Assembly (NCBI GenBank): GCA_963717045.1
Contig: CAVQVD010000010.1
Coordinates: 406,255 to 470,254, forward strand
Reading direction: 5' to 3'
DNA length: 64,000 bases
Source: an uncultured delta proteobacterium
GTDB taxonomy: Bacteria; Desulfobacterota; Binatia; Binatales; Binataceae
Shown here: positions 12,770-40,580 of the stretch, piece by piece
How positions within the stretch are numbered: position 1 is the first letter of the stretch
Layout: every line of letters begins with the position of its first letter
The notes under the pieces: model-generated
The model's database searches: none
Told to the model about the DNA's origin: nothing
Seen by the model: only the letters and a program-made list of their open reading frames with translations
Translations under genes and position numbers: made by a program

Positions 12770-12860
12770 ATGTTCCTCCGCCTAAACGCACCAGATCGGC
12801 GGGCGGAGCTTACCAAAAGAAAGATCAATAACCGGCTGTGACCGAGAACGAGGAGCGAGT

Positions 12861-13064: not shown

Positions 13065-13180
13065 GGCGGAACTGGCCACAACTCGACGCCAGTAGTCGAT
13101 CGGTAAGGTCCACGCATCAGTGAAGAGACGGCGGCGGGTCGTGGAGCTGGCGCGATAACTGAGGAAACGCTGAGTTGAAC

Positions 13181-13207
13181 GGCGGGGCGAAAGCCCCGCC
13201 GGTTTCG
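13181..13207 (+). terminator. stem-loop (attenuator/terminator-like) between the pilin genes and tadZ
   Basis: GGCGGGGC-gaaa-GCCCCGCC, a perfect 8-bp GC stem with GAAA tetraloop, followed by GGTTTCG. Confidence 0.5.
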
Positions 13208-13259
13208 CGAACAGGCGGGGACGCCGTTCGAAGGGGATCACCTCGCAAGGGAGACATTC

Positions 13260-15886: not shown

Positions 15887-16836
15887 TGGACCTGCTGATC
15901 GCGCTCGCGGTGTTTTTGCTGTTTGCCGGCGTCGGTGCGCTGCTGGTTCATCGCTCGCTCGATCACGTGGCGGTGGCGCGCCGTCTCGACGCGGTCACCC
16001 GCCCTGATGAGCTGATCGATCCGCTCGTGCGTACCGGCCCGCGCTCGCGCGCCGCCCATGGCCTGTTCAATGGCCTGCTGCCTCGACTCGACCTGATGCG
16101 CCGACTCGAACAGTACATGTGGCAGGCCGGCATGTATCAGAGTGGCTACAGAACGATACTATTAATGGGCGGACTGCTTGCCGCTGGGATCTGTGGCGGG
16201 ACGCTGGTCGCCGGAGATCTTCTAATCTCGATCGGCGCAGGCCTGGCGCTTTGCACGACGCCGTTGTTGTATATCCGGTTCAAGCGGACACGCCGACTCA
16301 AGGCCTTCCTGATTCAGCTCCCCTACGCGCTCGATCTGATCAAGTCGTCACTCGAGGCCGGCCATACGTTGCAGCGTGGGATGCAAGTGGTCGAGCAAGA
16401 GTTTGCCGATCCTCTGGGCGGCGAGTTTCGCACCGTGGTCGAGCAGACGCGACTCGGACTGCCGATCACCCACGCGCTCGCCGACATGCTGGCGCGGGTA
16501 CCCGAGGACGATTTGCGCCTGTTCGTGGTCGCGGTCAAGGTGCAATCCGACGTGGGCAGTTCGCTGGCGCAGATCATCGCGCGGCTTTCCGACATCGTGC
16601 GCACGCGCCAGCGCCTGTTCTCGCAGATTCGCGCGCTCACCGCGCAATCCCGGATGAGCGGGATGGTGGTGGGACTACTGCCGGTGGTGGTGCTCGCGAT
16701 GTTCAGCATCGTCCAACCGAGCTACGCACAAATGCTGTTCTTCGATCACACCGGTCAGATCATTTTGAAGATGGCGTCTGGTCTCGACTTTGGCGCCTTT
16801 CTGCTGATTCGGCACATCCTGAAGGTCAAATTCTGA
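15883..16836 (+). CDS. tadB: Flp pilus assembly protein TadB (T2SS-F domain membrane protein)
   Basis: 317 aa, polytopic, T2SSF-type helical domain. Start overlaps the cpaF stop (TGATG). Confidence 0.8.
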   Translation: MMDLLIALAVFLLFAGVGALLVHRSLDHVAVARRLDAVTRPDELIDPLVRTGPRSRAAHGLFNGLLPRLDLMRRLEQYMWQAGMYQSGYRTILLMGGLLAAGICGGTLVAGDLLISIGAGLALCTTPLLYIRFKRTRRLKAFLIQLPYALDLIKSSLEAGHTLQRGMQVVEQEFADPLGGEFRTVVEQTRLGLPITHALADMLARVPEDDLRLFVVAVKVQSDVGSSLAQIIARLSDIVRTRQRLFSQIRALTAQSRMSGMVVGLLPVVVLAMFSIVQPSYAQMLFFDHTGQIILKMASGLDFGAFLLIRHILKVKF

Positions 16837-16849
16837 CCCGAGGTGGGCA

Positions 16850-17785
16850 ATGAGTCCTCTGCTAGTCAGTACCATCGTATTCCTGGTGCTCGCCGGCGCC
16901 GCGACGGCAGTCTATGTCTCCGTCAACAGCGACAAGCACCTGATGCAGGGGCGGATGAGCCAGTTGGGATACCGGGCGCGCGTCAGCATGGCCGCTGCGG
17001 GCATGCCGGTTGCCTCCGATGATCGGCAGACGACCCGCGCGCTGCTCAAGTGGGCGGTTGAACGGCTACCCAAGCCGAAGGCGATTACGGTCTATAGCGA
17101 GAAGCGTGGCGAGTTACTGGTACAGGCAGGCTTTAAAGCCTCGAGTCTCGGCGTCTTCCGACTGTGCAAGGTCGCCGCGGCGGTGTGTGGTTTATTGCTG
17201 GGATTTCTTCCTGGCCTCATATTCGACGTACGAGGAAGCCGCGTAATCCTGCTGACGATCATGGGCGCCGCCGTGGGTGCGTTCCTGCCTGGGTACTATC
17301 TCAACAAGCGCGCCAAGAACCGCCAGATCGATATCGGACGCCAACTTTCCGATGTGCTCGATCTGCTAGTGGTGTGCGTCGAGGCGGGGCTCGGCTTGTT
17401 GGAGGCAATCAAGGTCGTCGGTAACGAGACCCAGGCCCAGCAGCTAGTCATCGGACAGGAGCTTTCGCAAGTCGCAGGCGAGGTCAACGCCGGGTCTTCG
17501 CTGGGACAGGCATTGAGGGCCCTGGCCGACCGCAGCGGGGTCGCCGATATCAAGCCGCTCGCCGCGACCCTGATTCAGAGTGAGCAACTCGGCGCTGCGA
17601 TCGGCCCCGCTTTGCGTGCGATCTCCGACTCGATCCGTTCCCGCCGACGCTTGCATGCCGAGGAGTCGGCCCAGAAAACCACCATCAAAATTCTCTTCCC
17701 GCTGGTGCTGATGATTTTGCCAGCGATGCTGCTCATCATCATCGGTCCGGCGATCGTACAAACCGTTCGTACGCTGAGCTTCTAA
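16850..17785 (+). CDS. tadC: Flp pilus assembly protein TadC (T2SS-F domain membrane protein)
   Basis: 311 aa, TM N-terminus, T2SSF domain. GAGGTGGG Shine-Dalgarno. Follows tadB with a 13-bp gap. Confidence 0.8.
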   Translation: MSPLLVSTIVFLVLAGAATAVYVSVNSDKHLMQGRMSQLGYRARVSMAAAGMPVASDDRQTTRALLKWAVERLPKPKAITVYSEKRGELLVQAGFKASSLGVFRLCKVAAAVCGLLLGFLPGLIFDVRGSRVILLTIMGAAVGAFLPGYYLNKRAKNRQIDIGRQLSDVLDLLVVCVEAGLGLLEAIKVVGNETQAQQLVIGQELSQVAGEVNAGSSLGQALRALADRSGVADIKPLAATLIQSEQLGAAIGPALRAISDSIRSRRRLHAEESAQKTTIKILFPLVLMILPAMLLIIIGPAIVQTVRTLSF

Positions 17786-19473: not shown

Positions 19474-19538
19474 CCGACGTTCTCCTTGCCGCGGAATGAG
19501 ACAGGCGCGATGGCGCGGCGCTTGCTCTCTTATCAGCC

Positions 19539-20042
19539 ATGAACCCGCGTGATGTCGTCGCCGTTTCCGGGCGATCGGCTGTTACTGGCTCGCCGATCAA
19601 CAATAACGAGGCTGACTCCTCTTCATTCAAGGCTGCTCCGCCCGGCGAGCCGCCGGCGGCGGCAGGCGGGCTGAATCGGGCTGAGTCAGATACGCCCGGC
19701 AAGTGGCTTAAAATCGAACATCCCGCATCGGATCCCGGACACCGTATTTCTGAAGCGAATCAGGAGGTGCCGAAGGATGCTGCGCGAGGTGGAGCCTCGA
19801 CTAACGTCATGGTGGCTGTGGTGAAAGAGGGGCCCAAAGATTTGTGGCCGCTCACGCTCGACGAGATTATCAAGCAGACCTTGGTTCGCCTGCTGAGCGA
19901 GACCGGAGGTAATCGCCGCCGCACGGCCAGTGTGCTTGGAATCTCGCGCTCGACCCTGTACCGCATGATCGCGCGCTACGGTCTCGATCATGTCGGACGC
20001 TCGGCGCTCTCGCCCAGGTCTATTATCGGTCCGCCGGTGTAG
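19539..20042 (+). CDS. Fis-family HTH DNA-binding protein (NtrC C-terminal-like HTH)
   Basis: C-terminal LDEIIKQTLVRLLSETGGNRRRTASVLGISRSTLYRMIARYGL. The long low-complexity N-terminus suggests the real start may be ATG 19809. Confidence 0.5.
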   Translation: MNPRDVVAVSGRSAVTGSPINNNEADSSSFKAAPPGEPPAAAGGLNRAESDTPGKWLKIEHPASDPGHRISEANQEVPKDAARGGASTNVMVAVVKEGPKDLWPLTLDEIIKQTLVRLLSETGGNRRRTASVLGISRSTLYRMIARYGLDHVGRSALSPRSIIGPPV

Positions 20043-22186: not shown

Positions 22187-22828
22187 ATGCGTGGCGCCCT
22201 CGCATTCAAACGATTCGCACGTAGCGTGTCAGAGCCATCGGACCAGGATCTGGTAGCCGGGGCGCTCAGTGGCGAGTCCGCAGCCTTCGCGGAGCTCGCC
22301 ACGCGCCATCGCTCACGCGTCGAGCGCATCTGCCAGCGTTTTTTTTCCGATGCGGAGCAGGTGCGCGACCTGGCCCAGGAAACCTTCATTCACGCTTACG
22401 GCGGTCTGAAGGGATACCGCGCCGAAATCCCGTTCGGCGCCTGGTTGCGCGCTATCGCGACCAACCTGTGCTATGACGAATTGCGCCGGCGCAGGCGCCG
22501 CCCCGAAGAGCTGGTGGCCGACTTCAGCGCGCCCGAGGCGAACTGGCTCGGGTTGGTCAATACGGCCACGCCCGAGCAGTTGGTCGAAGCGGCCGAGGAA
22601 CGGCGGGAGGCCAAGACGCTGGCCGACAAGCTACTCGGAACGCTGCGGCCCGAGGACCGATTGGTATTGACCTTGCAAAATGGCGAGGATCTGAGCGTTA
22701 GCGAAATTGCCGCGATTGTCGGCTGGAGCGAAGCTAAGGTTAAGATTCGCGCCTTTCGGGCGCGACAGGCGTTGCGCCGTCAGGCCGCGCGCCTGGTGCG
22801 CCCGAGCAAGGCGGAGAGTGAACGATGA
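22187..22828 (+). CDS. RNA polymerase ECF sigma factor (sigma-70 regions 2 and 4)
   Basis: Region 2 (FIHAYGGLKGYRAEIPFGAWLRAIATNLCYDELRRRRR) and region 4 HTH (LSVSEIAAIVGWSEAKVKIRAFRARQAL). Confidence 0.85.
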   Translation: MRGALAFKRFARSVSEPSDQDLVAGALSGESAAFAELATRHRSRVERICQRFFSDAEQVRDLAQETFIHAYGGLKGYRAEIPFGAWLRAIATNLCYDELRRRRRRPEELVADFSAPEANWLGLVNTATPEQLVEAAEERREAKTLADKLLGTLRPEDRLVLTLQNGEDLSVSEIAAIVGWSEAKVKIRAFRARQALRRQAARLVRPSKAESER

Positions 22829-23364
22829 ACTGTTTTGAAGCACGTCAGGATTTCGTGGGTTTTTGGCAGCGCGCACTCGACGGCGAACGCCGCCGCGAGT
22901 TGCTCGCGCACCTCAAGGGATGCTCCAAGTGCGACCGGGCATTTCGCGCCTTTGCGCTGACTGCGCCGATGCTCCATTCGGGGGGCGCTGCGACGGCCAA
23001 GGCCGGCGTCAGTGCTGCGCCGCATATCGCTCACGGAATTTCCACCAACTTTCACGTCAACCTGAACGGAGTTCGCAGTGCCGACACTCAGCGTGCGGCT
23101 GAGATCGTACAACGGGCCTCCGTCTATCGGCTCGCGGAGCGCCGTCCATCGCGCGGGTGGCGTGAGGCTGTGGCGGGAGTGTCGGCGGTTGCGGCGGCGA
23201 TGATGCTCGTTTACTTTTCAGTGGCCGCGCCATCGCAGTCCTTCGACGAAGCCCTGATTAGCTCGGATTCGATTTCCCAAACAGGCGTACCACAGCCGGA
23301 CTCGGATTTCCTCGGGCAGCAGATACCCTCGATGCCCGCCGTGGGCAATGATCTTGCCGGATAG
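22825..23364 (+). CDS. anti-sigma factor (ZAS-type HxxxCxxC, single TM)
   Basis: ATGA overlap with the sigma gene. LAHLKGCSKCD zinc motif and TM segment AVAGVSAVAAAMMLVYFSV. Confidence 0.7.
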   Translation: MNCFEARQDFVGFWQRALDGERRRELLAHLKGCSKCDRAFRAFALTAPMLHSGGAATAKAGVSAAPHIAHGISTNFHVNLNGVRSADTQRAAEIVQRASVYRLAERRPSRGWREAVAGVSAVAAAMMLVYFSVAAPSQSFDEALISSDSISQTGVPQPDSDFLGQQIPSMPAVGNDLAG

Positions 23365-27442: not shown

Positions 27443-29488
27443 CTAATTACTGCGGCGAACGTTCCGCCTGCCAACATAATAACGAAAGGAACTATCGCAG
27501 CATTGTATCTCGACAAAAGATATTCCGACCAGGGCGGTGGAAAGAATATAGCCGGTGGGGATCAGCGCAAATGCCGCGAAGGTCGCTCGCTCTTTCAGCA
27601 TCGGGATCAGCGGGATGCTCGCGAGCGCTATCCATGGAATGTATCTCCATGCAACGCCGAAGGCATCTTCCAGACCTTTACGCCAAAGCAAACTGTTCAC
27701 ATTTGCCTGAAGTAGTGGCGAAGACTCCAGGTTATTGTCGTACTCAAAAGGCGTCGAGGCGTACGGCATAAACGTGACGGGATTCAGAAAGTATTGAATC
27801 CAGGTCTGCTGCAAAGAATAGGAGAGGTATTTCCACGGCGACAGATGAATGCCTTCTAGCGCTGTGCGTTTCATGAGCGCTTCTACTTGTGCATCAGTCA
27901 ACCCCTTCAGTTCGAGCAAGTTCTGGATTTTCCAATGCGGAACACCATAAGGATTGAGCGGCGCAATCAACTTCAGCAATCTGGAAGTGGCCGGCGCCTG
28001 CTTGTCCAATAGGCACTGATCGGTGATGACGCGATTGTACAGATGCCGCCCGACTGAATTACTCAGCGCGAAATTACCTGATCTGATACCGAACCAGAGG
28101 ATCGGCATCGCCAGAATGACGATGACAAGCGCGGCGACCGCGCTGAACCTTCGGAGACCGATTGCCCGAGGCTCCGCGCCAATCATAATAGCCAGCATCG
28201 CCGGCAGCGCCGCCGCATATGGTATGACCCGGGCGAGTGTAGCCCACGCCAGCAATGAGCCCGCCAAGATACCGTCGCGAAGCCGTCCGTGCTCACGATA
28301 GTTAAATGCGAAATAGAGCGCTCCCATCATTCCAAACAGCGCCACGTTTTCCGACAAAAGTCCCTGCGGCAGCACCAACGTCGGCGCCGCGCCGCCGATT
28401 ATCAACGCGGTAGCGAAAGAGATCGTCGTCCCGGCGCAGCGCTCGAGCAGCCTGTAAGACCACCAGATTGTCGCGATCATCATGATGTGCTGAAGCAGCG
28501 TGATGGCTGAACCAGTGAAGGTGCGCGAGACCAGATAGCCCAGCCCTACCAGGATTGGATACCCAGGCGGGAAATACGCTGGCATCCCGTGCAGGAAGTT
28601 CGTGTCCAGCGTGGGGAGTTGCTTTAGGCTGTCGGTGAGAAGGCCGACAGGTTGCGTCGCCCAGAAGAGGAGGTGAAGCGTGGCGAGGTACATTAATAGC
28701 CAGAGGTCGAGGCGCGGGCGGCGCATCCACGGCCGGATAGCCGCGGCGAGTACGACAAACATTATTAGCCATGCGACGAAAGATCCTCGGGGCCACCGCG
28801 TGGGCGCGGGCAGGTCCACCGCCACGAACCGCATGTAGCGGCCGCCGCGCTCGCAGCGGTCGTTCCACACCGCCTCGCGGCGGTTCTGCCACACCGCCTC
28901 GCGGCGGTTCTGCCACACCGCCTCGCGGCGATTCTGCCACACCGCCTCCCGGCGGTTCTGCCCTAGCGCCTCGGGTGTGGAGCCAACATAGCGGTAGATA
29001 CTCAGGTTGCCGCAATGCCCCAGCCGGTCGAACAGAATGACCGCGCTCCTCGCGTTGAAAGAGATCGATGCGGACTCCAGCGTATCGGGATGGCTTAAAG
29101 TCCGATCCCAATAGCTTACCCAAGCGCCCTTCAATTCTGTATTTTCCCTGCGTAGTGCTTTGCCATCAGCGAGGAGCCTGGTAATCAAAATTCCATTGGC
29201 GGGAGCCTTTGCCGATCCGGACACCAGGATGGTGAACCGCTGCTCCTCTTGCGGAGTCTTGTGTGTTACTCCGCTGAGGCAGAGTGAAGCTGACCAGGCG
29301 AGAAGAATCGTTGAGGCCGCGGTGAACAGAGCAATCGCCAGGGCATTGACCCCCAACGGTTCGCGCGACGCCGAGGTGCGAAAAAATCCGCCGAGACGCC
29401 TCAGTGAAGGAAAGTAGGAGCGCGTTCTATCCGTCGCCTTTCTACACCCCGCCGAACCAGTCATAGCCCTGGTCTTCCCAATAGCCAC
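27443..29488 (-). CDS. large polytopic membrane protein, GT-C-like (possible PMT/ArnT-type glycosyltransferase) with an N-terminal soluble region and an internal 8-aa tandem repeat
   Basis: 681 aa; ~10 predicted TM helices in the middle, C-terminal soluble domain; (EAVWQNRR)x4 encoded by the 24-bp repeat. Family assignment is tentative. Confidence 0.5.
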   Translation of the reverse strand: MAIGKTRAMTGSAGCRKATDRTRSYFPSLRRLGGFFRTSASREPLGVNALAIALFTAASTILLAWSASLCLSGVTHKTPQEEQRFTILVSGSAKAPANGILITRLLADGKALRRENTELKGAWVSYWDRTLSHPDTLESASISFNARSAVILFDRLGHCGNLSIYRYVGSTPEALGQNRREAVWQNRREAVWQNRREAVWQNRREAVWNDRCERGGRYMRFVAVDLPAPTRWPRGSFVAWLIMFVVLAAAIRPWMRRPRLDLWLLMYLATLHLLFWATQPVGLLTDSLKQLPTLDTNFLHGMPAYFPPGYPILVGLGYLVSRTFTGSAITLLQHIMMIATIWWSYRLLERCAGTTISFATALIIGGAAPTLVLPQGLLSENVALFGMMGALYFAFNYREHGRLRDGILAGSLLAWATLARVIPYAAALPAMLAIMIGAEPRAIGLRRFSAVAALVIVILAMPILWFGIRSGNFALSNSVGRHLYNRVITDQCLLDKQAPATSRLLKLIAPLNPYGVPHWKIQNLLELKGLTDAQVEALMKRTALEGIHLSPWKYLSYSLQQTWIQYFLNPVTFMPYASTPFEYDNNLESSPLLQANVNSLLWRKGLEDAFGVAWRYIPWIALASIPLIPMLKERATFAAFALIPTGYILSTALVGISFVEIQCCDSSFRYYVGRRNVRRSN
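28856..28975. repeat. tandem 24-bp direct repeat (~5 copies, 3 perfect) inside the CDS, in frame
   Basis: GGCGGTTCTGCCACACCGCCTCGC repeated; flanking copies are degenerate. Confidence 0.9.
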
Positions 29489-30137
29489 CGGTGCGATTGG
29501 GCAGAAAGTTGACCTCGGTAAGATACTTAACGTTTTTGTAGCCGAGCTTGACCGCGGAGTACACTCTCGCCGGCGCCCCGTGATTGGGATGCAGGTCGTG
29601 CCCGTTCATCCCATAGGCGAGCAAAGTCTGCGGATGAAGCGCGCTGCCGAGATCCCACGATGACCAGTAGTTCGCGTCGAACGAACGGAACTCTACATAG
29701 CGCACCCGCGGATCGACACCGACCGCGCGCGCGAGTTCGCTCAGCCGCACGCCGTGCCACGCCGCGACTGCGGACCAGCCCTCCACGCAATGATGGCGAA
29801 CGCGCATATCCGTGCGCGGCATCGCCTTCAACTGCTCGAGCGTGAATACCCTCGGCCGTGCAACCATCCCACCGACCTTGAGCGACCAGGCAGCGGGCGG
29901 AAATGGCATCGTGTCCGCGATGAAGTAACTCGGAAACGCAGGCTCGGGGGTCAGGTCTTTCTCGGGCGCCTCTGGCGCGAGGCGCGAGGGCGAGAAGATC
30001 AGGCTTTCGAAATGTTCGTTGACGCGCAGCATCACGTTGAGAAAGGACGAAACTGCACGGGGCGTGTCGCACCCGCCTAGCAACGAAGCCGCCGCGAAGC
30101 CGGTAAGCATTTTTCGACGCGTGATTAACCTAGCCAC
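29442..30137 (-). CDS. msrP: periplasmic molybdopterin-dependent oxidoreductase, sulfite-oxidase family (MsrP/YedY-like)
   Basis: Tat signal (RRKMLTGFAAASLLGG) and Mo-domain motifs (RVRHHCVEGWS, GAPARV). Short form without a dimerisation domain, like MsrP. Confidence 0.75.
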   Translation of the reverse strand: MARLITRRKMLTGFAAASLLGGCDTPRAVSSFLNVMLRVNEHFESLIFSPSRLAPEAPEKDLTPEPAFPSYFIADTMPFPPAAWSLKVGGMVARPRVFTLEQLKAMPRTDMRVRHHCVEGWSAVAAWHGVRLSELARAVGVDPRVRYVEFRSFDANYWSSWDLGSALHPQTLLAYGMNGHDLHPNHGAPARVYSAVKLGYKNVKYLTEVNFLPNRTGGYWEDQGYDWFGGV

Positions 30138-30831
30138 GCTGCCCTCCGGTGATCATCGCCAGCAGCTCTCGCGGATGCAGCAGCACCAGCACGACGTGAT
30201 TCACTACAAACATCGCTATAAACACCAGCCCCAGCAGATGGATGACGCGGGCTGAATCGTAGCCACCGAACAGTCTCAATAGCCAATGAAGCTGCACCGG
30301 CTTGTAAATAGCCAGTCCCGAGAGCACCTGCAGGGTGATGATTATCACCACGGAGCTGTAGGCGAACCGTTGCAAGCCATTGTAGAAGTCGGGCGGCGGT
30401 GGCGTTTTGAAGACGCGCAGATAGTAGCCGAACATATGGAGCGCGTTACGAGCGTCGCGGACAGGGAGAAAGAGCCGCCGGCGCCATTCGCCGCGGCCGA
30501 AAAAATACGCGATGTAGATCACGCCGTTCAGCACCAACAACCAGGCGATCGCGAAATGCCAGTGCCGCGCGCCCGCGAGCCATCCGCCGATCGTCAGCCA
30601 CGATGGCGGCGCAACTCCCTGCCACGGATACCATGCGTATTTTGCGCCCTGAGGTCCCAGTGAAGGATAGGCGGCGAAGATTTCCAGTCCGCTCGCCGCC
30701 ATCAGGACGATAAACAGTACATTCAGCCAGTGGTTGAGCCGGATTGTGAGCGGCTGGATGCGCCGTCCCCTGAAGCGCGGGTCCGCGACCGTTTCATTCA
30801 TCGGAGCGGTGCGCATCGGAGTGGTCCGCAT
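30130..30831 (-). CDS. cytochrome b561-family membrane protein, likely electron donor to the MsrP-like enzyme
   Basis: 233 aa, 4-5 TM helices, N-terminal RLNHWLNVLFIVLMAASG typical of Ni_hydr_CYTB/cyt b561. Overlaps msrP by 8 bp. Confidence 0.6.
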   Translation of the reverse strand: MRTTPMRTAPMNETVADPRFRGRRIQPLTIRLNHWLNVLFIVLMAASGLEIFAAYPSLGPQGAKYAWYPWQGVAPPSWLTIGGWLAGARHWHFAIAWLLVLNGVIYIAYFFGRGEWRRRLFLPVRDARNALHMFGYYLRVFKTPPPPDFYNGLQRFAYSSVVIIITLQVLSGLAIYKPVQLHWLLRLFGGYDSARVIHLLGLVFIAMFVVNHVVLVLLHPRELLAMITGGQRG

Positions 30832-31215: not shown

Positions 31216-31737
31216 TTACCTTCGTTTTCGATCGGTGACCTCGATTTCCGAAGTGTGCAGCGCGCGTTCCATCCGGCGATGGATGATGCCGGCTTCCTCG
31301 AATAGGTCGCCGACCGGAGTGAAGCCCTGCTTCAAGTAGAAGCCCTCGGCATGCAGTTGGGCGTCGAGCACGGCCCGCCCGCAGCCGCGGCGACGCGCGT
31401 GTTCGATCAGAAACTCGAGCACGCGCCGCCCGACGCCTGTGCCGCGGCGCTCCGCCAGCACGGCCATCCGTCCTATTTTGACGTAATCGTTGTGCACGAG
31501 CATCCGGCCGCATCCCACCGGCCGCCCGTCCTCGAGCGCCAGCGCATGGAAGGCGTGCGCGTCGTCGGCGTCGAGTTCGATGGTCTCAGGCACGTGCTGT
31601 TCTTCGATAAAAACCCGTCGGCGCAGCATCCACGCCTGTTCCATACGCGAGCGGTCGCCGCCGACCTCGATAACGCTGAGCGCGGCCGCGGGAGCATCCA
31701 TCGTAATTCCACTAGCGCGTGCCCGGTGCATCGTCAA
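31216..31737 (-). CDS. GNAT-family N-acetyltransferase
   Basis: Motif A RRGTGVGRRVLEFLIEHARRRG; acetyl-CoA fold. Confidence 0.8.
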   Translation of the reverse strand: MTMHRARASGITMDAPAAALSVIEVGGDRSRMEQAWMLRRRVFIEEQHVPETIELDADDAHAFHALALEDGRPVGCGRMLVHNDYVKIGRMAVLAERRGTGVGRRVLEFLIEHARRRGCGRAVLDAQLHAEGFYLKQGFTPVGDLFEEAGIIHRRMERALHTSEIEVTDRKRR

Positions 31738-31830
31738 ATCGTGTCGCGCCCGGCCAGTGAGTCAGCCAGTCGCATGCCCGCGAGTAGAAATTTAGTTGAT
31801 AGCCAATATCGGCACTGTGCTAGGCTCACA

Positions 31831-32685
31831 ATGCAAGGACGATTTGCGCCGGCGCGGCTTGCGGCGCCGGGTAAAGGCGCGACGGGAATGACGAAGGAAA
31901 TCGAACGGGCGACCGATGAACAGATAAAGCAGGCGGCCGAAATGCTGCTCGCGGCGCGCTATCCGATCGCGCTTACCGGCGCAGGGATGTCGGTCGAAAG
32001 CGGCATCCCGCCGTTTCGCGGGCCCGGCGGTCTGTGGACCAAGTACGGCGAGCCGCCGATGAATGGCTACCAGATCTTTCTCGCCGATCCCAAGAAGGGA
32101 TGGGAGGAACGGATCAAGCGCCAGGACGACGAGCTGTTCGCGCCGCTCAAGGTGGCGCGTCCCAATCCCGGCCATTACGCCTTTGCCGAGCTGGAACAGA
32201 TGGGCGTGCTGCGTTTCCTGATCACGCAGAACGTCGACGACCTTCATCGCCAGGCTGGGCATCAGGCGCTCGCCGAAATTCACGGCAACTGGAAGCTTAT
32301 CCGATGTCTCCAGTGCGGGACGCGTTTCCAGGCGGAAGAGGTGAACCTTGAAGTATTGCCGCCGAGCTGTTCGAAATGCCGAGGGATGCTGAAGGCGGAC
32401 ACGGTCGCGTTCGGCGAGCCAATTCCCGCCGACGCGCTGCGCGAGTGCGCCGCACACTCGGCTCGTGCCGACCTGGTGATCCTTGGTGGAACTTCGGCGA
32501 CGGTCTATCCGGCGGCTGGTTTCGCGATCGAGGTCAAGGAGCGCGGCGGCCGCTTGATTGAAGTGAACCTCTACGATTCTGAGATCACGGCCCTGTGTGA
32601 TCTAAGTCTGCGCGGTGGTTCGGCTGACGTGCTGCCCCGTCTGACCCGGAGTATTGCGGAGCTTCGTCGCACGCGCATGTCGTGA
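31831..32685 (+). CDS. cobB: NAD-dependent protein deacylase, Sir2 family
   Basis: GAGMSVESGIPPFRG, QNVDDLH, and a Zn ribbon CLQCG...CSKC. The ORF is open from 31351, but that upstream part is antisense to the GNAT gene. Confidence 0.85.
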   Translation: MQGRFAPARLAAPGKGATGMTKEIERATDEQIKQAAEMLLAARYPIALTGAGMSVESGIPPFRGPGGLWTKYGEPPMNGYQIFLADPKKGWEERIKRQDDELFAPLKVARPNPGHYAFAELEQMGVLRFLITQNVDDLHRQAGHQALAEIHGNWKLIRCLQCGTRFQAEEVNLEVLPPSCSKCRGMLKADTVAFGEPIPADALRECAAHSARADLVILGGTSATVYPAAGFAIEVKERGGRLIEVNLYDSEITALCDLSLRGGSADVLPRLTRSIAELRRTRMS

Positions 32686-32771
32686 ACCCGGCAGGGCACG
32701 TCCCTTGCTGTTGAGCCCGGCGTCTCGTTCGCAGGCGCACGAAATACGGGCGTGCGCGCGAGGTTCAAGCG

Positions 32772-34256
32772 ATGGATGCACAGCGGGCGGGCATTCCGGT
32801 GCCCGGTTGTAAGGCAGAAGCGGCCACGGTTCAGCCGATCAACGAGATGTTCGACGCGCAAGGCCGCGCGCGGCCAGAGTGCGCGCGGGTAATCGCTTAC
32901 CTGCTTGCGATGGACTCCCAGCGGCTCTCCGAACTGGGGGACCGCGCACATCGTATGTTCCAGACGATGGGCGTGACCTTCAACGTTTACGGCGACAACG
33001 AGGGCGAGGAGCGAATCTTTCCCTTCGATCCGATTCCCCGAATTATCGCGCCCGAGGTCTGGGCCGGCGTCGAGGCTGGCCTGATTCAACGCGCGCGAGC
33101 GCTCAACGCCTTTGTCGGCGACATTTATGGCGCGGGCCTGATCGTCAAGGATGGGGTGATTCCTCGCGACCTGGTAATCGGCTCGCCACAGTTCCGGCAC
33201 GCGGCGACGGGAATCCAGTCGCCCTGCGGCGTTTTCATAACGGTCGCGGGGATCGACCTGGTGCGCGGCGCCGACGGACGCTTCCACGTGCTCGAGGACA
33301 ACGTGCGCACGCCGTCGGGCGTGTCCTACGTCATCGAGAACCGGCGCATCATGACGCGCCTGATGCCCGAGTTGATTCGCGGCATGCGGGTCAGGAGCGT
33401 CGAGAATTATCCGGCCTACCTGCTTGCCAGTCTGCGCGAGCTGGCCCCGCACGGGGTTGCGGATCCGACCGTCGTACTGCTGACGCCGGGGCCGTTCAAT
33501 TCCGCGTTCTTCGAGCACGTGTTCCTGTCGCAGCAGATGGGGATCGAGCTGGTGGAAGGGCGTGACCTGGTATGCATGGACCACAAGCTCTACATGAAGA
33601 CGGTTCACGGGCCGCGTCGAATAGACGTCTTGTACCGGCGGGTCGACGACGACTTTTTAGATCCGGTGGTCTTTCGTCCCGATTCGATGCTCGGCGTCGC
33701 GGGGCTGACCGCGGTGCTTCGCGCGGGCAACGCAACGCTGGCCAACGCGATCGGTACCGGGGTCGCCGACGACAAGGGCGTGTTCGCCTACACGCCGGCG
33801 ATGATTCGCTATTATTTGAACGAGGAGCCGCTGCTGCCGATCGTCGAGACCTACCTGTTGCGCGATTTCGAGGTCAGACAGACGGTGCTGCGCGACCTGG
33901 ACCGCTACGTGGTTAAACCCACCGGGGCCTCGGGCGGTTACGGCGTGGTGATCGGACCCAGCGCGACGGACGAGGAGCTGGCGCAAGCGCGCGTGCGGAT
34001 TGAGGCGGCCCCGGCCGAGTTCATCGCGCAGCCGGTGTTCCCGCTCTCGGTGCATCCAACGCTGACCGGCGGCGTTGTCGGGGGCGTGGCTGCCCTGGCG
34101 GCGCGCCACGTCGATCTGCGGCCCTTCGTGCTGCTCGGGGCAAAGCCGCGGGTGCTGGCGGGAGCGCTGACGCGGGTGGCGCTGCGTGAAGGCTCGCTCA
34201 TCGTGAACTCCTCGCAGGGCGGCGGCAGTAAGGATACCTGGGTGCTGGAAGAATAG
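32772..34256 (+). CDS. circularly permuted ATP-grasp type 2 protein (DUF404/DUF407)
   Basis: 494 aa, characteristic architecture; gene order with alpha-E and transglutaminase. Confidence 0.75.
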   Translation: MDAQRAGIPVPGCKAEAATVQPINEMFDAQGRARPECARVIAYLLAMDSQRLSELGDRAHRMFQTMGVTFNVYGDNEGEERIFPFDPIPRIIAPEVWAGVEAGLIQRARALNAFVGDIYGAGLIVKDGVIPRDLVIGSPQFRHAATGIQSPCGVFITVAGIDLVRGADGRFHVLEDNVRTPSGVSYVIENRRIMTRLMPELIRGMRVRSVENYPAYLLASLRELAPHGVADPTVVLLTPGPFNSAFFEHVFLSQQMGIELVEGRDLVCMDHKLYMKTVHGPRRIDVLYRRVDDDFLDPVVFRPDSMLGVAGLTAVLRAGNATLANAIGTGVADDKGVFAYTPAMIRYYLNEEPLLPIVETYLLRDFEVRQTVLRDLDRYVVKPTGASGGYGVVIGPSATDEELAQARVRIEAAPAEFIAQPVFPLSVHPTLTGGVVGGVAALAARHVDLRPFVLLGAKPRVLAGALTRVALREGSLIVNSSQGGGSKDTWVLEE

Positions 34257-35197
34257 TGCTGCGGCGCATTGCGGGTTCATTATTCTGGGCGGCGCGTTAT
34301 CTCGAACGCGCGCAATGGCGCGCGCGCCTGGTTGACGTCAATTATAATCTGTTGCTCGAAGTCCCACCGCGCGATCTCGATCCCTGGGAGCCGCTGGTCC
34401 GCATCACTGCCGAACAGGAGCTGTTCACGACCAAGCACAGCCACGCAGGCGAAGCCGCGGTGATAGATTTTTTCGTCTTCGACAAGGAAAACCGGTCCTC
34501 GATCCGCAACTGCATCGAGTCGGTGCGTGTCAATCTGAGTCCGCTGCGCCATCTGATTTCGTCCGAGCTCTGGCTGGCGATTAACCGGCTCTATCTTGAG
34601 ACGCAAGGATGGTCTGCGCAGGCGCTCGCGGCGGCCGGCGTGTCGGCTTTCTTCGCCGAACTCCAGCGCCACTTTTATACTATCGACGGAATCATCGTGA
34701 ACACCATTCCGCGCGACCTGACTTATGATGTTATGGCGATGGGCACGATGCTCGAGCGGCCGGACAACGTCTCGCGCCTGCTCGATGTGAAATATCATTA
34801 CCTGCTGCCGCGGCTGGAGGACATCGGTGGGCCGGCCGACTTGCGCCAATGGGCGGCGGTGCTGCGCACCGCATCGGCGTTCGAGGCGTTTCGCAAGGTC
34901 TACGGCCATGCGATCAGGGTGGACCGCGTAGTCGAGATTTTGGTCTTCGATCCCGCGTTTCCGCGCTCGATGCGATTCAGCATCGAACGCCTGGCGCAGG
35001 CGCTGGCGCGGATTGCGTCGCGGCAAGGCGAACCGGTTCCGGAACACCCGCCCTGCGCGGAATTGCTCTCGATGCTGCACGAGGGATCCGCCAGCCAGAC
35101 CATCGCGGGCGGTCTGCACGAATTTTTAATCGACGTCGAAGCGCGTTGTGCACGGCTGGCGGACTACGTATTCGACCGTTACATGTCGCTCGAGTAG
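34256..35197 (+). CDS. alpha-E domain protein (DUF403)
   Basis: 313 aa, RIAGSLFWAARYLERAQ N-terminus typical of alpha-E; start overlaps the ATP-grasp stop. Confidence 0.75.
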   Translation: MLRRIAGSLFWAARYLERAQWRARLVDVNYNLLLEVPPRDLDPWEPLVRITAEQELFTTKHSHAGEAAVIDFFVFDKENRSSIRNCIESVRVNLSPLRHLISSELWLAINRLYLETQGWSAQALAAAGVSAFFAELQRHFYTIDGIIVNTIPRDLTYDVMAMGTMLERPDNVSRLLDVKYHYLLPRLEDIGGPADLRQWAAVLRTASAFEAFRKVYGHAIRVDRVVEILVFDPAFPRSMRFSIERLAQALARIASRQGEPVPEHPPCAELLSMLHEGSASQTIAGGLHEFLIDVEARCARLADYVFDRYMSLE

Positions 35198-35209
35198 GCT
35201 CTGACAACG

Positions 35210-36142
35210 ATGCTGGTGCGGATAAGCCATCGGACCCAGTTCGTGTACGATCAGCCGGCCCGCGATTCGCACAACGAACTGCGGTTGCAACCGCTCGAAG
35301 GGGCGGGGCAACGCTGTCTCTCCTTCGAACTGATCATCGATCAGCCCGCCGCCGTGCTTTCGTACCGGGATTTCTTCGGCAACCATGCGCATTCCGTGTC
35401 GGTCAGCGCGCCGCATCGCGAGCTGACGATTGTCGCGCAATCGTTAGTCGAGCGGCCCGAGACGATGCTGGAAGCGAGCGCCGACAAGCCGCACCCTGAA
35501 GTAATGTTCCGTAATTTTCTCGCTGAGGATGAAGCTCACATCAAAGACTATTGCGAATTTCTGAATCCGAGCCGGTACGTTCCCTTCAGCAAGCGGTTGC
35601 AGAATCTGTTCTGGATGGCGCGGCCGGGCGATACTGAAGACGTCGCGATCTACGTCGCGCGAATCGTGGCCTGGGTCCGTGACCAGTTCGATTACCAGAA
35701 GGCAAGGACGAATGTGTACTCGAGTCTTGACGATATACTCAGAACCGGCAGCGGCGTATGCCAGGATTTCGCCCATCTGACTATTGGACTATTGCGCCTG
35801 GCGGGCGTGCCCGCCCGCTACGTCTCGGGTTATCTCGCTCCGACGGTTTCGGCCGCCGGCAACGCATCGCTCGGCGAGCAGGCGAGCCACGCCTGGCTCG
35901 AAGCCTGGCTGCCGCAGGAGGGATGGACCGGCTTCGATCCGACTAATCGATATCGCACCGACGAGCGCCACGTGCGGGTCGCCGTCGGACGCGACTATGC
36001 CGACGTCCCGCCGCTGATGGGTATGTACCGAAGCAATGCGACCAACCAGGTGATGACGGTCGACCTCAACGTAGAGCATACCGTCGCAACCGGCCCGGCC
36101 GACGGGACCAGCAGCGACCGGGGCAGCCAGACACAACAGTAA
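35210..36142 (+). CDS. transglutaminase-like cysteine protease-fold protein (Bact_transglu_N plus Transglut_core)
   Basis: GSGVCQDFAHL catalytic Cys; H and D downstream (SHAWLEAW...GFDPTN). Confidence 0.8.
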   Translation: MLVRISHRTQFVYDQPARDSHNELRLQPLEGAGQRCLSFELIIDQPAAVLSYRDFFGNHAHSVSVSAPHRELTIVAQSLVERPETMLEASADKPHPEVMFRNFLAEDEAHIKDYCEFLNPSRYVPFSKRLQNLFWMARPGDTEDVAIYVARIVAWVRDQFDYQKARTNVYSSLDDILRTGSGVCQDFAHLTIGLLRLAGVPARYVSGYLAPTVSAAGNASLGEQASHAWLEAWLPQEGWTGFDPTNRYRTDERHVRVAVGRDYADVPPLMGMYRSNATNQVMTVDLNVEHTVATGPADGTSSDRGSQTQQ

Positions 36143-36284
36143 AATTCGCAATTCAGGCCGCTTCCCCGACTGAAACGCCCGGCGGCGCCAACGCTGCTCC
36201 TGAGATTTCGGTTGTGTATCGCCACCCGATGCTACGCGGCAATTAGTGGCCGGGATGACGCGGCTGGGCATGCCCATCGCGGCC

Positions 36285-38126
36285 TCAAACGTCGAATTCA
36301 GGAGGTTCACCCTTGGGGGGCGGCTCGGCGCCGGGCGCCCCCGGGCTTTCCGGCGCGTTGCCCGGCTCGCATCGCAGCAACACCATCCCGCCCGAGCCAT
36401 CAAGCTCGGTCGGATGACTCAGCAGTACGGCGCGAAACTGCTCGCGTATCGAGGGCGGCAGCCGCAGAAATTCCTCGCGCCAGGCGAGCAGGAAGTCGGG
36501 ACGCGGTCCACTCCAGATCGATACGACGGGCAGGTTGCGCTCGCTGTAGTACGCGACGTCATAGTTGAGCGCTCCCATGTAGCCGACACTGTGGGTTCCA
36601 ACGATGTTCATCGCCTCGTGCGTGAAAGGCTCCAGCGTCAGCGCATTGGCTAGCGCAGGGACCACGAACAGGTTGGCCGCGAGCGCGAGACAGATCATGC
36701 CGCCGGCCACCGCGACGCACAGGCGCTCGACGCTTTGACGGCGCCGTATGGCGAACAGGCCGATCGCGATCATGGCGATTCCAAGGCCCATCGCGATGAA
36801 GGGACGGACCGCCGCGGCAAGCTCGAGCTGCGGAACGAAATCGTAGTCGTTGATAACGAGATTCTTCAGTACCAATTCCAGCGCATGGGGCGCGAAGGCC
36901 AGCATGCCGAGGCCGAACAGCGCGTCGAGCCCGGCGAGGATAAAGAACATGGCGGTAAGCTGCGAGAGCCCGCGGATCCAGTTCCCGGAGACGTCCAGTA
37001 CGCGCGCAGCCGCCTCCAGGTAAATCGCCAACAGGGCCGCGAGCGCAGGGTAAAGCGCGAGCAGGTAAACGCCCCGCTTGCTCTGCGGCAGATTGTAAAA
37101 GAGCAGCACGCCTACAAACCAAACCATCAGGTAGGAGAGACGCGGGTCCATTGCGCGCGGACGGCGCGCGGCCTGTACGAAGACGATCAGCAGCAGCGGG
37201 GTCCACGGCATGAAGCCGGCTAGCAGCGCTCCTTCCACGTAGTAGAAGGGATGAGCATGGCCCTCGCGAAACGCGCCGTCGCGCACGAAGCGGAAGAGAT
37301 TCTCCGCCAGGAGCTGCTTGTGCACGAACGGCATCCCGCCAGCCAGTGCTGCCGCCAGGTACCATCCTCCGGCCAGCAGGGCGACCAGCGCCGCGCCGTG
37401 TCCCAGGCGCAGCTCCCGGAGCAGTTGCCATCGGCCCTCGACCGTGATCCACGCCAGCGCTATCAGTGCCGGCAGAATCAGGCCCACCGGTCCCTTGCTG
37501 AGCACCGCCATCGCTATCGCGAAGTACAGCGTCATCCGGCGTGCCGTCAGTCCCTCGGCGATCAGGATGAACTCGAAGAGCGCGACTTCAAGGAAGAAAG
37601 TGAGCGTCATATCGACCCGCGCGCCGCTGCCAGCCTGCAGATACTGCACTGTGGTGCCGAGGATTAGCGCCGTAAGGAAGCCGATACGGTCGTCAAAGAG
37701 GCGGCGCATGTAAAGGTACGCGGCGAGCATTCCGCCGACTGCGAACAGCCCCGAGGGCATCCGCACCGTCCACTCGCTGACACCTCCTGCGAATATCGAG
37801 ATGATCGCCGCCAGCCAATGCATCAGGAGCGGCTTGGAGGGAACTTCGACTCCCGCGCGCAGCGGCAGGATGAATCCACCGCCATGCAGCATATTGAAGA
37901 CGGTTACTGCCTCGCGCGGCTCGCCTTTGGTATAAAACGGGTAACCACCCAAATTTACCAGGAAGAGCGCCGCGCCACACCCGATGAGAACGAAAATCGC
38001 CAGGGGCGGCTCGGCGAGACTGCTGAACCATTTGAGGCCGCGAGCGCCGTCCGTGCCGCCGGTCGGCGCGGACGGCGGCTCGGGAGCGAACGAAGGCTGC
38101 GTAACGCCCAAGGCTGCGTCATCCAT
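36285..38126 (-). CDS. GT39/GT83-type glycosyltransferase (ArnT/PMT-like, undecaprenyl- or dolichyl-phosphate-sugar dependent)
   Basis: 613 aa; N-terminal YTKGEPREAVTV...LPLRAGVEVPSKPLLMHWL motif typical of ArnT/PMT; >10 TM helices. Confidence 0.75.
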   Translation of the reverse strand: MDDAALGVTQPSFAPEPPSAPTGGTDGARGLKWFSSLAEPPLAIFVLIGCGAALFLVNLGGYPFYTKGEPREAVTVFNMLHGGGFILPLRAGVEVPSKPLLMHWLAAIISIFAGGVSEWTVRMPSGLFAVGGMLAAYLYMRRLFDDRIGFLTALILGTTVQYLQAGSGARVDMTLTFFLEVALFEFILIAEGLTARRMTLYFAIAMAVLSKGPVGLILPALIALAWITVEGRWQLLRELRLGHGAALVALLAGGWYLAAALAGGMPFVHKQLLAENLFRFVRDGAFREGHAHPFYYVEGALLAGFMPWTPLLLIVFVQAARRPRAMDPRLSYLMVWFVGVLLFYNLPQSKRGVYLLALYPALAALLAIYLEAAARVLDVSGNWIRGLSQLTAMFFILAGLDALFGLGMLAFAPHALELVLKNLVINDYDFVPQLELAAAVRPFIAMGLGIAMIAIGLFAIRRRQSVERLCVAVAGGMICLALAANLFVVPALANALTLEPFTHEAMNIVGTHSVGYMGALNYDVAYYSERNLPVVSIWSGPRPDFLLAWREEFLRLPPSIREQFRAVLLSHPTELDGSGGMVLLRCEPGNAPESPGAPGAEPPPKGEPPEFDV

Positions 38127-38758: not shown

Positions 38759-39709
38759 TCAGTTCATAGGTTGATGGATCGCCTCTGCCGCCTCCGACGG
38801 GGTGGCCGGCACGCGGCGTGCCCCATCGGCGCCGAGCACCAGCAGCAGCACGCCGGAGATCGCTACCAGTACGCCGATAAGGTCGCGCGGCGTCGCGCGC
38901 TCGCCGAGGAAGGCAATCGCGCACAGGATGGACAGCAGCGGAATGCCCGGAATCACCAGCGCGGTGGTCCAGGCGAGCGAAAGCCGGTTGATCGCCGCAT
39001 ACCAGGCCAGCGTCGCAAGAAAATAGCAGACCACCCCGGTCGCGACGATCGTTTCGAGTGCCAGCGGATCGGCCAGTTGCACCACCGCACGTGGATTGAG
39101 CAGCGCAAGGGCGACCGTCAGCACGATGGCGCCGTAGCCAAAACGGGCGGCGGTCATGCAGATGGGTGACAATGGCGGCATCACCGGCAGCGACAGAATA
39201 TGCGAGGTCTGCCAAAGGAGCGGCGTCCCCGCGACCAGCATTGCCGCCCACGCCGGCGAATAGGCGCCGCTCGAGCCGCCGATCGCCGACACGATGCCGA
39301 TGACAATAATCGCGGTCGCGGCTAGTTGGCGGAGCGTGGGGCGCTCGCCGGCGAACAGCGTCGCCAGCAGCAATGAATAGACCGGCTCGCTCTGCAGCAG
39401 CAGTGTTCCGGCTACCGCGTCGATTCGGCGAAGGCCGAAGACCAGGGTGAGAGTCGTTAGGACAGTCCCGATGGTCGAGAGCAGCAGCAAGCGCATCCGG
39501 TAGCGCCGGTCGATTAGCAGCCCCAGTTCGCCGCGCGCGTACACCACCGGCAGCACGCACAGGGTCGCCACCACCGGGCATCCGGCCGCGAAAAGCATCG
39601 GGTCCAGCCGCGTGGCGCCGAAGCGCACCAGCGCGGGCTGCGCAGCCGCGGTGACCGTGCATAGCGCCGCCATCGCGATTCCGGCGCCCCGCTTGTTCAG
39701 CCGGGCCAT
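38759..39709 (-). CDS. DMT-superfamily (EamA-like) transporter, 10 TM
   Basis: 316 aa; two EamA-like halves; Gly-rich TM helices. Confidence 0.8.
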   Translation of the reverse strand: MARLNKRGAGIAMAALCTVTAAAQPALVRFGATRLDPMLFAAGCPVVATLCVLPVVYARGELGLLIDRRYRMRLLLLSTIGTVLTTLTLVFGLRRIDAVAGTLLLQSEPVYSLLLATLFAGERPTLRQLAATAIIVIGIVSAIGGSSGAYSPAWAAMLVAGTPLLWQTSHILSLPVMPPLSPICMTAARFGYGAIVLTVALALLNPRAVVQLADPLALETIVATGVVCYFLATLAWYAAINRLSLAWTTALVIPGIPLLSILCAIAFLGERATPRDLIGVLVAISGVLLLVLGADGARRVPATPSEAAEAIHQPMN

Positions 39710-39791: not shown

Positions 39792-40580
39792 TCAGCCACC
39801 ACGGGCGAAAAAGACGGCTATGACCAATGCCGCAACCAGCAGGCGATAGACCGCGAACACAACGTAATTGCGCGTTCGCACGTAACGGATCAGGAAGGCG
39901 ATCGCGATCAGGCCGAAGACGGCGGCCGCGATGAAACCAATACCTACCGACCAGTCGATACCCTCGTGGATTAGCTTGCGCGACTCGATCAACCCGGCGC
40001 CGGCGATTATCGGGGTCGCCATCAGAAAGGAGAAATTGGCCGAGTCGCCGCGCTCTATCCGAACCGCCCGCGCCATCGTGATCGTGGCTCCTGAGCGCGA
40101 TACTCCGGGTATTATCGCGAGCGCCTGGCTGAAACCGATCGCCAGCGCATCCCAGTAAGTCATTTCGCTCATCGTTCGCTTTTGTGGCGAGAGCTTGTCG
40201 AACAACCACAACAGGACTGCCATAATCGCCAGCGCGATCGCGATTAACAGCGGAGAGCGGAATGTGGTGTCAGCCTGCTTCTCGAAGGCGAGACCGATGA
40301 TCGCTCCGGGGATCGAAGCCGTGATGAGTAGCTGAAGAAGGCGACGTTCTTCGGGATGGCCGCCGGCTATCGAACGCGCCATTTGGATCCATTCCGCTCG
40401 ATAATAGATCAGCAGGGCCAGCAGCGTCCCCAGATGCAAGGCGACGTCGAAGGCAAGGCCGGGGTCTTTCCATTTGAGAAGCCAGGGCACGAGGACTAGA
40501 TGGGCGGAACTGGAGATGGGAAGAAATTCGGCCAACCCCTGAACGGCACCCAGGATGAACGCTTGAAAGTGTGAAATCAT
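39792..40580 (-). CDS. uppP: undecaprenyl-diphosphate phosphatase
   Basis: 262 aa; GAVQGLAEFLPISSSAHL and PGVSRSGATI motifs of BacA/UppP. Confidence 0.9.
   Translation of the reverse strand: MISHFQAFILGAVQGLAEFLPISSSAHLVLVPWLLKWKDPGLAFDVALHLGTLLALLIYYRAEWIQMARSIAGGHPEERRLLQLLITASIPGAIIGLAFEKQADTTFRSPLLIAIALAIMAVLLWLFDKLSPQKRTMSEMTYWDALAIGFSQALAIIPGVSRSGATITMARAVRIERGDSANFSFLMATPIIAGAGLIESRKLIHEGIDWSVGIGFIAAAVFGLIAIAFLIRYVRTRNYVVFAVYRLLVAALVIAVFFARGG

Follow-up and report, generated by a model that had tools for sequence, protein, structure and literature searches.

A conserved triad of bacterial genes encodes a circularly permuted ATP-grasp protein, an Alpha-E protein and a transglutaminase-like (TGL) protein. 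We describe the copy of this triad found in a stretch of 64,000 nucleotides (nt) of contig CAVQVD010000010.1 (assembly GCA_963717045.1) from an uncultured bacterium of the Binatia; this whole stretch is referred to below as the window. The triad (COG2308/COG2307/COG1305) was first noted around the proteasome-like protein Anbu, as the "Anbu operon" (PMC3235984). The conserved operon is credited to Valas and Bourne (2008) and to Iyer et al. (2009), as these are cited in PMC3495828 and PMC5666114. In the form quoted in PMC3495828, PMC5666114 and PMC6376114, Iyer et al. (2009) read it as an amidoligase-peptidase system, and PMC3495828, citing that work, gives the TGL protein as a predicted peptidase that undoes the tags added by the ATP-grasp protein. 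An earlier note on this DNA, made from the sequence alone, had called the amidoligase-peptidase system a prediction whose chemistry was not established, and the literature agrees: PMC6376114, PMC5666114 and PMC3495828 still give the chemistry of the triad as a prediction, and a literature search that included newer work found no publication establishing its substrate or product.

Several homologues have been linked to nitrogen limitation. In Pseudomonas putida, the operon is reported to show the strongest up-regulation of all under nitrogen limitation (PMC3235984, note added in proof; PMC5666114), and PP_2688 and PP_2685 are up by log2 4.0 and 4.4 on nitrate versus ammonium (PMC8050072). In Burkholderia cenocepacia, NtrC and sigma-54 are needed for transcription of I35_5080-83 (PMC5491218). 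The domains DUF403/404/407 and Bact_transglu_N co-vary with domains of urea metabolism in marine metagenomes (PMC3597751).

The window locus is an ordinary member of this known, chemically uncharacterized gene set. It has the same three families, in the same order and orientation, as the Anbu operon of P. putida (PP_2688-PP_2685) and Yersinia bercovieri. The Anbu operon differs in its occurrence in Proteobacteria and Cyanobacteria and in having Anbu, a proteasome-like N-terminal nucleophile (Ntn) hydrolase, as a fourth gene, which does not follow TGL here; control of the nitrogen-limitation/sigma-54 type has been reported for it, whereas the window has the promoter motif only. The B. cenocepacia genes I35_5080-5083 (BCAM1233-1236; PMC5491218) likewise include DUF404/DUF407, DUF403 and transglutaminase-like genes in a row, but the fourth gene there encodes a large transglutaminase-domain protein and the window has only a TGL protein of about 310 amino acids (aa). 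In its proposed logic, an ATP-dependent ligase with a reversing hydrolase and a substrate encoded elsewhere, the triad resembles TTL/TTLL with their peptidases, RimK, and PafA with Dop (an analogy from PMC3495828 and general knowledge). These proteins belong to families different from those of the triad: TTL and RimK are non-permuted ATP-grasp proteins, PafA and Dop have a glutamine-synthetase-like fold, and none has an Alpha-E partner. In Mycobacterium tuberculosis, we assume that Rv2411c/Rv2410c/Rv2409c and Rv2566-Rv2569c are copies of this triad or variants with fused genes, and Rv2569c is presumably a member of the TGL subfamily. Rv2411c and Rv2567 were chosen as ATP-binding candidate enzymes, and their lysates made no gamma-aminobutyric acid (GABA)-trehalose (bioRxiv 10.64898/2026.04.15.718621). 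Rv2569c has a predicted cysteine-protease domain and a cell wall location; it was reported to degrade proteins and was inhibited by serine-protease but not by cysteine-protease inhibitors (PMC11081392). Its inhibitor profile and location are unlike what would be expected of the window TGL, a putative cytoplasmic Cys-His-Asp enzyme.

The triad of the window consists of these genes:

32772-34256, plus strand: ATP-grasp gene (494 aa, ATG start), in the list of open reading frames (ORFs); Pfam CP_ATPgrasp_2 (PF14403, E 3.3e-150) and CP_ATPgrasp_1 (PF04174, E 4.8e-136)
34256-35197, plus strand: Alpha-E gene (313 aa, GTG start), in the ORF list; Pfam PF04168 (E 7.7e-78)
35210-36142, plus strand: TGL gene (310 aa, ATG start); Pfam Bact_transglu_N (PF08379, 2.5e-25) and Transglut_core (PF01841, 1.7e-24)

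The three-gene triad reported in the earlier note is borne out in full by the ORF list, Pfam and the sequence. The note had also taken the overlap of start and stop between the first two genes as a sign of translational coupling, and related loci speak for this: at the junction (GAAGAATAGTGCTG), the GTG start begins on the last base of the TAG stop (34254-34256), and this overlap of 1 nt recurs in L001, L003 and L005, with a spacer of 0 nt in L002. The spacer between the Alpha-E and TGL genes is 12 nt. The intergenic flanks of the triad are 86 nt upstream (32686-32771) and 142 nt downstream (36143-36284), and the gene 3′ of it, convergent with the triad, encodes a PMT_2 glycosyltransferase. 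None of the triad genes has a second copy in the window, and no NCBIfam model matches any of the three proteins. The nearest database proteins are metagenomic and 99% identical; the named relatives are metagenome-assembled genomes of "Candidatus Binataceae." Promoter- and terminator-like sites across the operon region show no excess over the shuffled expectation. From this, the tiny spacers, the conserved gene order and the Alpha-E-TGL fusions described below, we predict that the three genes are co-transcribed.

A scan of a genome collection gave at least 598 confirmed relatives, of which the best 80 loci were kept for comparison. Homologues were extracted from 83 loci in Acidobacteriota, Planctomycetota, Bacteroidota, Verrucomicrobiota, Cyanobacteria, Chloroflexota, Actinomycetota, Nitrospirota, Myxococcota, and others. 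Of the 73 loci whose downstream sequence is long enough to judge, from ten or more phyla, 65 have the genes on one strand in the order ATP-grasp, Alpha-E, TGL, and the median spacers in related loci are about 21 nt at both junctions. With hundreds to thousands of homologues per protein and a gene order that crosses phyla, the triad is well beyond chance. Sequence identity across phyla is 50-55% for the ligase, against 22-37% for Alpha-E and 25-40% for TGL, which both change far more quickly.

There is no sign of a fourth gene. When ORFs of at least 90 aa were clustered, no other family was present in more than 8 of the 84 loci, and the small clusters are alternative-frame shadows. Anbu (proteasome family) was found neither among the 67 window ORFs scanned nor beside the related loci examined. 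The locus is a three-gene, Anbu-less, short-TGL form of the triad. The earlier note had seen no obvious precursor-peptide ORF in the flanks, and this is confirmed by a search for short ORFs (20-89 aa) around the triad, extended to 83 loci, in which no family occurs in more than 5. Two families reach 5 loci; both are opposite-strand shadows inside the long (about 1100 aa) TGL gene of a planctomycete/verrucomicrobial subgroup. With its 86 nt, the upstream intergenic sequence has no room for a precursor longer than about 28 aa. The DNA flanking the window triad shows no relation to the flanks in L002, L003 and L005. The lack of a recurring neighbor and of a short ORF, together with the differing flanks, points to a self-contained triad with a substrate that is encoded elsewhere.

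Loci with a second ATP-grasp gene or a long TGL are a more complex variant than the window system. A second circularly permuted ATP-grasp paralogue, 28-34% identical, is present in L020, L021, L031, L060, L066, L078 and L080 (mostly planctomycetes and verrucomicrobia). In L027 (8569-11958), a transglutaminase-domain protein of about 1100 aa replaces the short TGL, and opposite-strand ORF shadows common to L020, L060 and L080 suggest that these have the same long TGL.

Comparison of the upstream DNA suggests that the triad has a sigma-54-dependent promoter of its own, conserved in the Binatia lineage; this is new here. Two features are predicted between the upstream Sir2 gene and the ATP-grasp gene:

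32694-32709, plus strand: putative sigma-54-type -24/-12 element GGGCACGTCCCTTGCT (-24 GG at 32695-32696, -12 GC at 32707-32708), 63 nt before the ATG
32710-32771, plus strand: predicted 5′ leader, with the Shine-Dalgarno sequence GAGG at 32760-32763

The element, with one mismatch to the consensus TGGCACG-N4-TTGCW, follows the Sir2 stop (32683-32685) within the gap of 86 nt. It is present in all six independent Binatia-type loci (the window, L001, L005, L006, L002 and L003). The L001 element is identical to that of the window, and L005 has GGGCACGCCCCTTGCT in a different upstream context. In L006, L002 and L003, where the ligase is 70-75% identical, the element reads CGGCACGCGCATTGCG, GGGCATGTGGCTTGCT and GGGCACACGACTTGCT, respectively, and the rest of the intergenic DNA is unalignable. 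The distance from element to start is 67-90 nt in the five loci other than the window. We scored 350 nt 5′ of every homologue at 11 specified positions, with GG and GC required, using 350-nt windows from the same loci as background. A score of at least 10 was reached by 11 of the 84 loci versus 0.45% of background windows, and a score of at least 9 by 20 of 84 versus 3.5%. Outside the Binatia-type loci, 6 of 77 score at least 10 (about 17-fold over 0.45%) and 13 of 77 at least 9; among these are a Myxococcota locus (TGGCATGTGGCTTGCT) and Opitutales loci (TGGCAGGnGTCTTGCT). Upstream of the triad, no sigma-70-like promoter was found. The sigma-54 element agrees with the NtrC/sigma-54 nitrogen control published for the Pseudomonas and Burkholderia homologues, and by analogy with these the window triad may be induced by nitrogen limitation.

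Between the sigma-54 element and the Shine-Dalgarno sequence there is a block, GCACGAAA (32738-32745 in the window; about 7968-7975 in L001), that is common to the window, L001 and L005. In the window it is flanked by an imperfect inverted repeat (GCGCACG...CGTGCGC). Rfam gives no match at E<=1 on the leader or operon region. As to an NtrC-type upstream activator site, only imperfect inverted repeats were seen in the window, where no dedicated search was made. Only one further sequence in the window, TGGCGCGGCGCTTGCT (19511-19526), has at most one mismatch to the sigma-54 consensus; it is 12 nt before a 167-aa ORF (19539-20042, Fis-type HTH_8), too close for the start as called. An NtcA-box-like sequence, GTATGAAATATTAC (GTA-N8-TAC), is found in L042 about 99 nt upstream of the ATP-grasp match. 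NtcA boxes were considered for the cyanobacterial homologues and rejected, with GTA-N8-TAC upstream of one in three, which is not significant.

ATP-grasp enzymes convert a carboxylate to an acyl-phosphate, which is then joined to an amine. The window protein matches CP_ATPgrasp_2 with 500.6 bits (cut-off 32) over the full profile (1-374 of 374) and CP_ATPgrasp_1 with 453.6 bits (cut-off 23.1); Pfam at E<=10 finds nothing besides these two. It can be aligned over its full length with PDB 3n6x (E 2.9e-158, residues 17-493 versus 4-473), and the two have in common the motifs EDN, KxxGxSGGYG, and a C-terminal SSQGGG(S/T)KDTW. On this alignment, 3n6x is a suitable structural template for the window protein. 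The ExN-like EDN (175-177) comes before the Lys and Gly-rich loop (382-391) in the sequence. Across 83 homologues from many phyla, 91 residues are invariant, including E175-D176-N177, K335, K382, G388-G389, Q420, D448, R450, and the C-terminal N479-W490 (NSSQGGGSKDTW); those from E175 to R450 have aligned counterparts in 3n6x. Going by general knowledge of ATP-grasp proteins, the nucleotide- and Mg-binding residues of an active enzyme appear to be present, and we predict an ATP-dependent carboxylate-amine ligase. The Y. bercovieri homologue was found to release orthophosphate from ATP (PMC6376114).

The CP_ATPgrasp assignment of the earlier note stands when it is checked against another ATP-grasp family, glutathionylspermidine synthase, which is the PDB name of 3n6x. 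We rejected this identity for the window protein: there is no GSP_synth Pfam match at E<=10, and the family profile retrieves from the PDB only 3n6x and no characterized GspS chain. For these reasons, we regard the name of 3n6x as an unsupported structural-genomics label.

The Alpha-E protein matches PF04168 with 262.6 bits (cut-off 20.8) over the full profile (1-294 of 294), beginning at residue 1. Clustered at 50% identity, the family comprises 4,465 clusters with a cut-off of E<=1e-3 and 2,225 with E<=1e-10. Residues R4, W11, R14, E17, R18, W44, W106, G145, E167 and P236 are invariant. The two halves of the protein are homologous (residues 3-97 versus 153-253, hhalign probability 97.3%, E 2.4e-11), with YLERAQWRARLVDVNY superposed on MLERPDNVSRLLDVKY in the alignment. 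Judged from this alignment, Alpha-E is an internal tandem duplication that carries two ER motifs, E17-R18 (invariant) and E167-R168 (E167 invariant, R168 at least 93% conserved). An AlphaFold2 model built with 61 homologues is all helical, with 15 helices, a predicted local distance difference test (pLDDT) value of 90.6 and a predicted template-modeling (pTM) score of 0.89. Foldseek found no match to the model in the PDB below E 0.1, with template-modeling (TM) scores <0.25, and sequence and profile searches of the PDB found no relative. We predict that Alpha-E is a partner or adaptor of the ligase. Alpha-E, Bact_transglu_N and Transglut_core are joined in one chain, in the order of the separate genes, in P0302 (632 aa) and P0317 (635 aa); these two proteins are representatives of independent 50% clusters and may be true fusions or merged gene calls. 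By the Rosetta-stone argument, these chains suggest that Alpha-E and TGL act together.

TGL domains with a Cys-His-Asp triad hydrolyze or transfer amide bonds. The window TGL has an N-terminal Bact_transglu_N domain and a papain-like core with Cys184-His227-Asp243. It matches PDB 3isr (4.9e-16) and 6g49 (4.2e-14), with Cys, His and Asp aligned in both. A catalytic Cys had been proposed in the motif GSGVCQDF; the motif is present, and its Cys184 is aligned with the Cys of GVCRDFAHL in 3isr. In 65 homologues C184 and H227 are invariant and D243 is at least 93% conserved. We predict that the protein is a thiol peptidase, amidase or transamidase.

We tentatively propose, at a probability that we place slightly short of even, that the triad carries out a cycle of ligation and removal, induced by nitrogen limitation, on a peptide or protein carboxylate encoded elsewhere, with Alpha-E as the partner of the ligase and TGL as the reversing peptidase. 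The three genes would be transcribed from their own sigma-54 promoter under an enhancer-binding activator, most likely in response to an NtrC-type nitrogen-limitation signal. The circularly permuted ATP-grasp protein would activate a carboxylate as acyl-phosphate and join it to an amine, and the duplicated, helical Alpha-E would work with it as a specificity or scaffold subunit. The cytoplasmic Cys-His-Asp TGL would trim or remove the amide or isopeptide linkage made by the ligase. Such a cycle would add and remove a group in the style of a peptide tag, in connection with the turnover of protein or nitrogen. From the extreme conservation of the ligase, we expect that its substrate is probably a carboxylate on a peptide or protein that all these bacteria have, and the peptide direction is suggested by the triad sitting with the proteasome-like Anbu in other genomes (PMC3235984). 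In this scheme we infer the ligase chemistry from the family as a whole, and we likewise infer that the three proteins associate physically and what their substrate is like. We consider unlikely the reading that the triad serves reversible tagging in nitrogen starvation, with ATP-grasp, guided by the duplicated Alpha-E as adaptor, attaching a tag (an amino acid or a peptide) to the carboxylates of a protein that is universally conserved, and TGL taking the tag off. If true, this would be a bacterial counterpart of tubulin- or Pup-type tagging without an operon-encoded tag or target; it would feed the proteasome-like particle in Anbu lineages, and Alpha-E would be a new ligase-adaptor fold without a solved relative.

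Several points weigh against the proposed cycle. The window by itself has 2 sites with at most one mismatch to the sigma-54 consensus versus 0.70 expected, and 17 of 100 shuffles equal this, so that the match is not significant; the element is meaningful because it is conserved across Binatia-type loci. About three quarters of the homologous loci have no strong -24/-12 match, which suggests that sigma-54 control is lineage-specific. Neither rpoN nor an activator gene was found within the 64-kb window. Pull-downs detected no complexes among the Yersinia operon proteins (PMC6376114), and for no member has a product or substrate been demonstrated. The conservation of the ligase, its likeness to glutathione synthetase (at the SUPERFAMILY level, PMC3235984) and the nitrogen regulons fit a small-molecule substrate equally well.

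With a small-molecule substrate, ATP-grasp and Alpha-E would join a metabolite carboxylate to ammonia or a small amine, a reaction likened to the glutathione-synthetase or gamma-glutamyl-amide style, TGL would be a thiol amidase, and the triad would serve scavenging or storage when nitrogen is scarce. A ligase that is 50-55% identical across phyla, with 91 invariant residues, and the lack of a co-conserved substrate gene are consistent with such a role in nitrogen metabolism. Transporters and enzymes of assimilation make up most of the regulons to which the homologues belong (PMC5491218, PMC8050072), and the homologues also co-vary with urea metabolism (PMC3597751). One study reported a weak assignment to a glutathione-synthetase-like fold (PMC3235984). 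The isolated enzyme releases orthophosphate from ATP without added protein substrate, and pull-downs detected no protein complex (PMC6376114). We nevertheless judge this role somewhat unlikely. Proteins with Transglutaminase-core and Bact_transglu_N domains are mostly directed at proteins or peptides, the triad is beside the proteasome-like Anbu in many genomes (PMC3235984), and no oxidoreductase or transporter accompanies it, as would be usual for a catabolic conjugation route. The Rv2411c and Rv2567 lysates that made no GABA-trehalose also speak against it, very narrowly, with one product tested (bioRxiv 10.64898/2026.04.15.718621). A different role for TGL, as a true transglutaminase or deamidase that acts on glutamine side chains and releases ammonia, with ATP-grasp and Alpha-E preparing or regulating the targets, is in our view quite improbable. 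The Cys-His-Asp triad is as in transglutaminases, 6g49 is deposited as a protein-glutamine gamma-glutamyltransferase, and ammonia from glutamine in nitrogen starvation has been raised as a possibility (PMC6376114), but no transglutaminase activity has been reported for the TGL subfamily and comparative analysis gives these bacterial TGLs a peptidase role (PMC3495828). Rv2569c, the one presumed homologue assayed, is reported to degrade proteins and not to cross-link them, and its inhibitor profile is unlike that of a cysteine enzyme (PMC11081392).

Pairs of an ATP-grasp ligase and a papain-like peptidase also occur, from general knowledge, in clusters for ribosomally synthesized and post-translationally modified peptides (RiPPs), where the ATP-grasp protein would macrocyclize or modify a precursor peptide encoded elsewhere and TGL would be the leader peptidase. 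The absence of a co-conserved short ORF in 83 loci, the 86 and 142 nt of intergenic space in the window, a ligase far more conserved than the usual RiPP tailoring enzymes, and the lack of a linked transporter or immunity gene make a RiPP-type pathway, such as those of the graspetide or microviridin type, very improbable. An anti-phage defense or toxin system is suggested by the Sir2-domain gene directly upstream of the triad, and we give it hardly any credence: no PADLOC-DB match at E<=0.01 was found for the triad proteins and Sir2, the Sir2 protein scores as a CobB-type deacylase and is paired with a divergent GNAT gene, and this neighbor is kept in none of L002, L003 and L005 but only in L001, which is the closest relative. 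The triad is itself a chromosomal core-type gene set with nitrogen-regulon behavior. Our preferred reading remains the nitrogen-limitation-induced cycle of ligation and removal.

The 444-aa ORF at 31351-32685 is over-extended, and the real Sir2/CobB-like gene is at about 31942-32685 (247 aa, as called in L001). A GNAT acetyltransferase gene (31216-31737, minus strand) is divergent from it, giving a deacylase/acetyltransferase pair directly 5′ of the triad. We rejected a functional link between the triad and this pair because the pair is conserved only in L001. At 29442-30831 (minus strand), the genes for an Oxidored_molyb molybdopterin oxidoreductase and a cytochrome b561-family membrane protein form an overlapping pair that is syntenic in L001. 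Two ArnT-like PMT_2 glycosyltransferase genes flank the region, with genes for an EamA transporter and a BacA undecaprenyl-diphosphatase nearby (27443-29488, 36285-38126, 38759-39709 and 39792-40580, all on the minus strand). The PMT_2, EamA and BacA genes have envelope or lipid-carrier functions unrelated to the triad, and the downstream PMT_2 gene is syntenic in L001.

Farther away, the window contains a Tad/Flp-type pilus assembly cluster (11526-17785), which encodes one TadE/G-like protein, two ATPases (one ParA/MinD-like, the other T2SSE and CpaF-like) and two T2SSF (TadB/TadC-like) proteins. The gene for an extracytoplasmic function (ECF) sigma factor (Sigma70_r2/r4) and, after it, that for a zf-HC2 anti-sigma factor have overlapping coordinates (22187-23364). 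Homologues of LptD and LptE are encoded side by side at 51461-54805, which confirms a diderm (outer-membrane) host.

This analysis goes beyond the earlier note in pointing to the sigma-54 promoter and the published nitrogen link, the Anbu-less form of the locus, a crystal structure of a close homologue of the ATP-grasp protein, and the fact that a RiPP-style precursor is not to be expected. What it adds for the family is the Binatia sigma-54 promoter, the removal of the "glutathionylspermidine synthase" label, an Alpha-E protein that appears duplicated and is structurally orphan, and the lack of a precursor or fourth gene. The comparative results narrow the search for the substrate, which is encoded elsewhere and probably universal; neither a RiPP precursor nor a fourth gene is expected. 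The triad is among the most widespread conserved bacterial operons without a known reaction. The window copy is a compact, Anbu-free version with a conserved putative sigma-54 promoter and adds no new kind of system. This promoter would tie the Binatia lineage to the nitrogen-limitation behavior of the proteobacterial homologues, and it names the condition under which the product may be sought.

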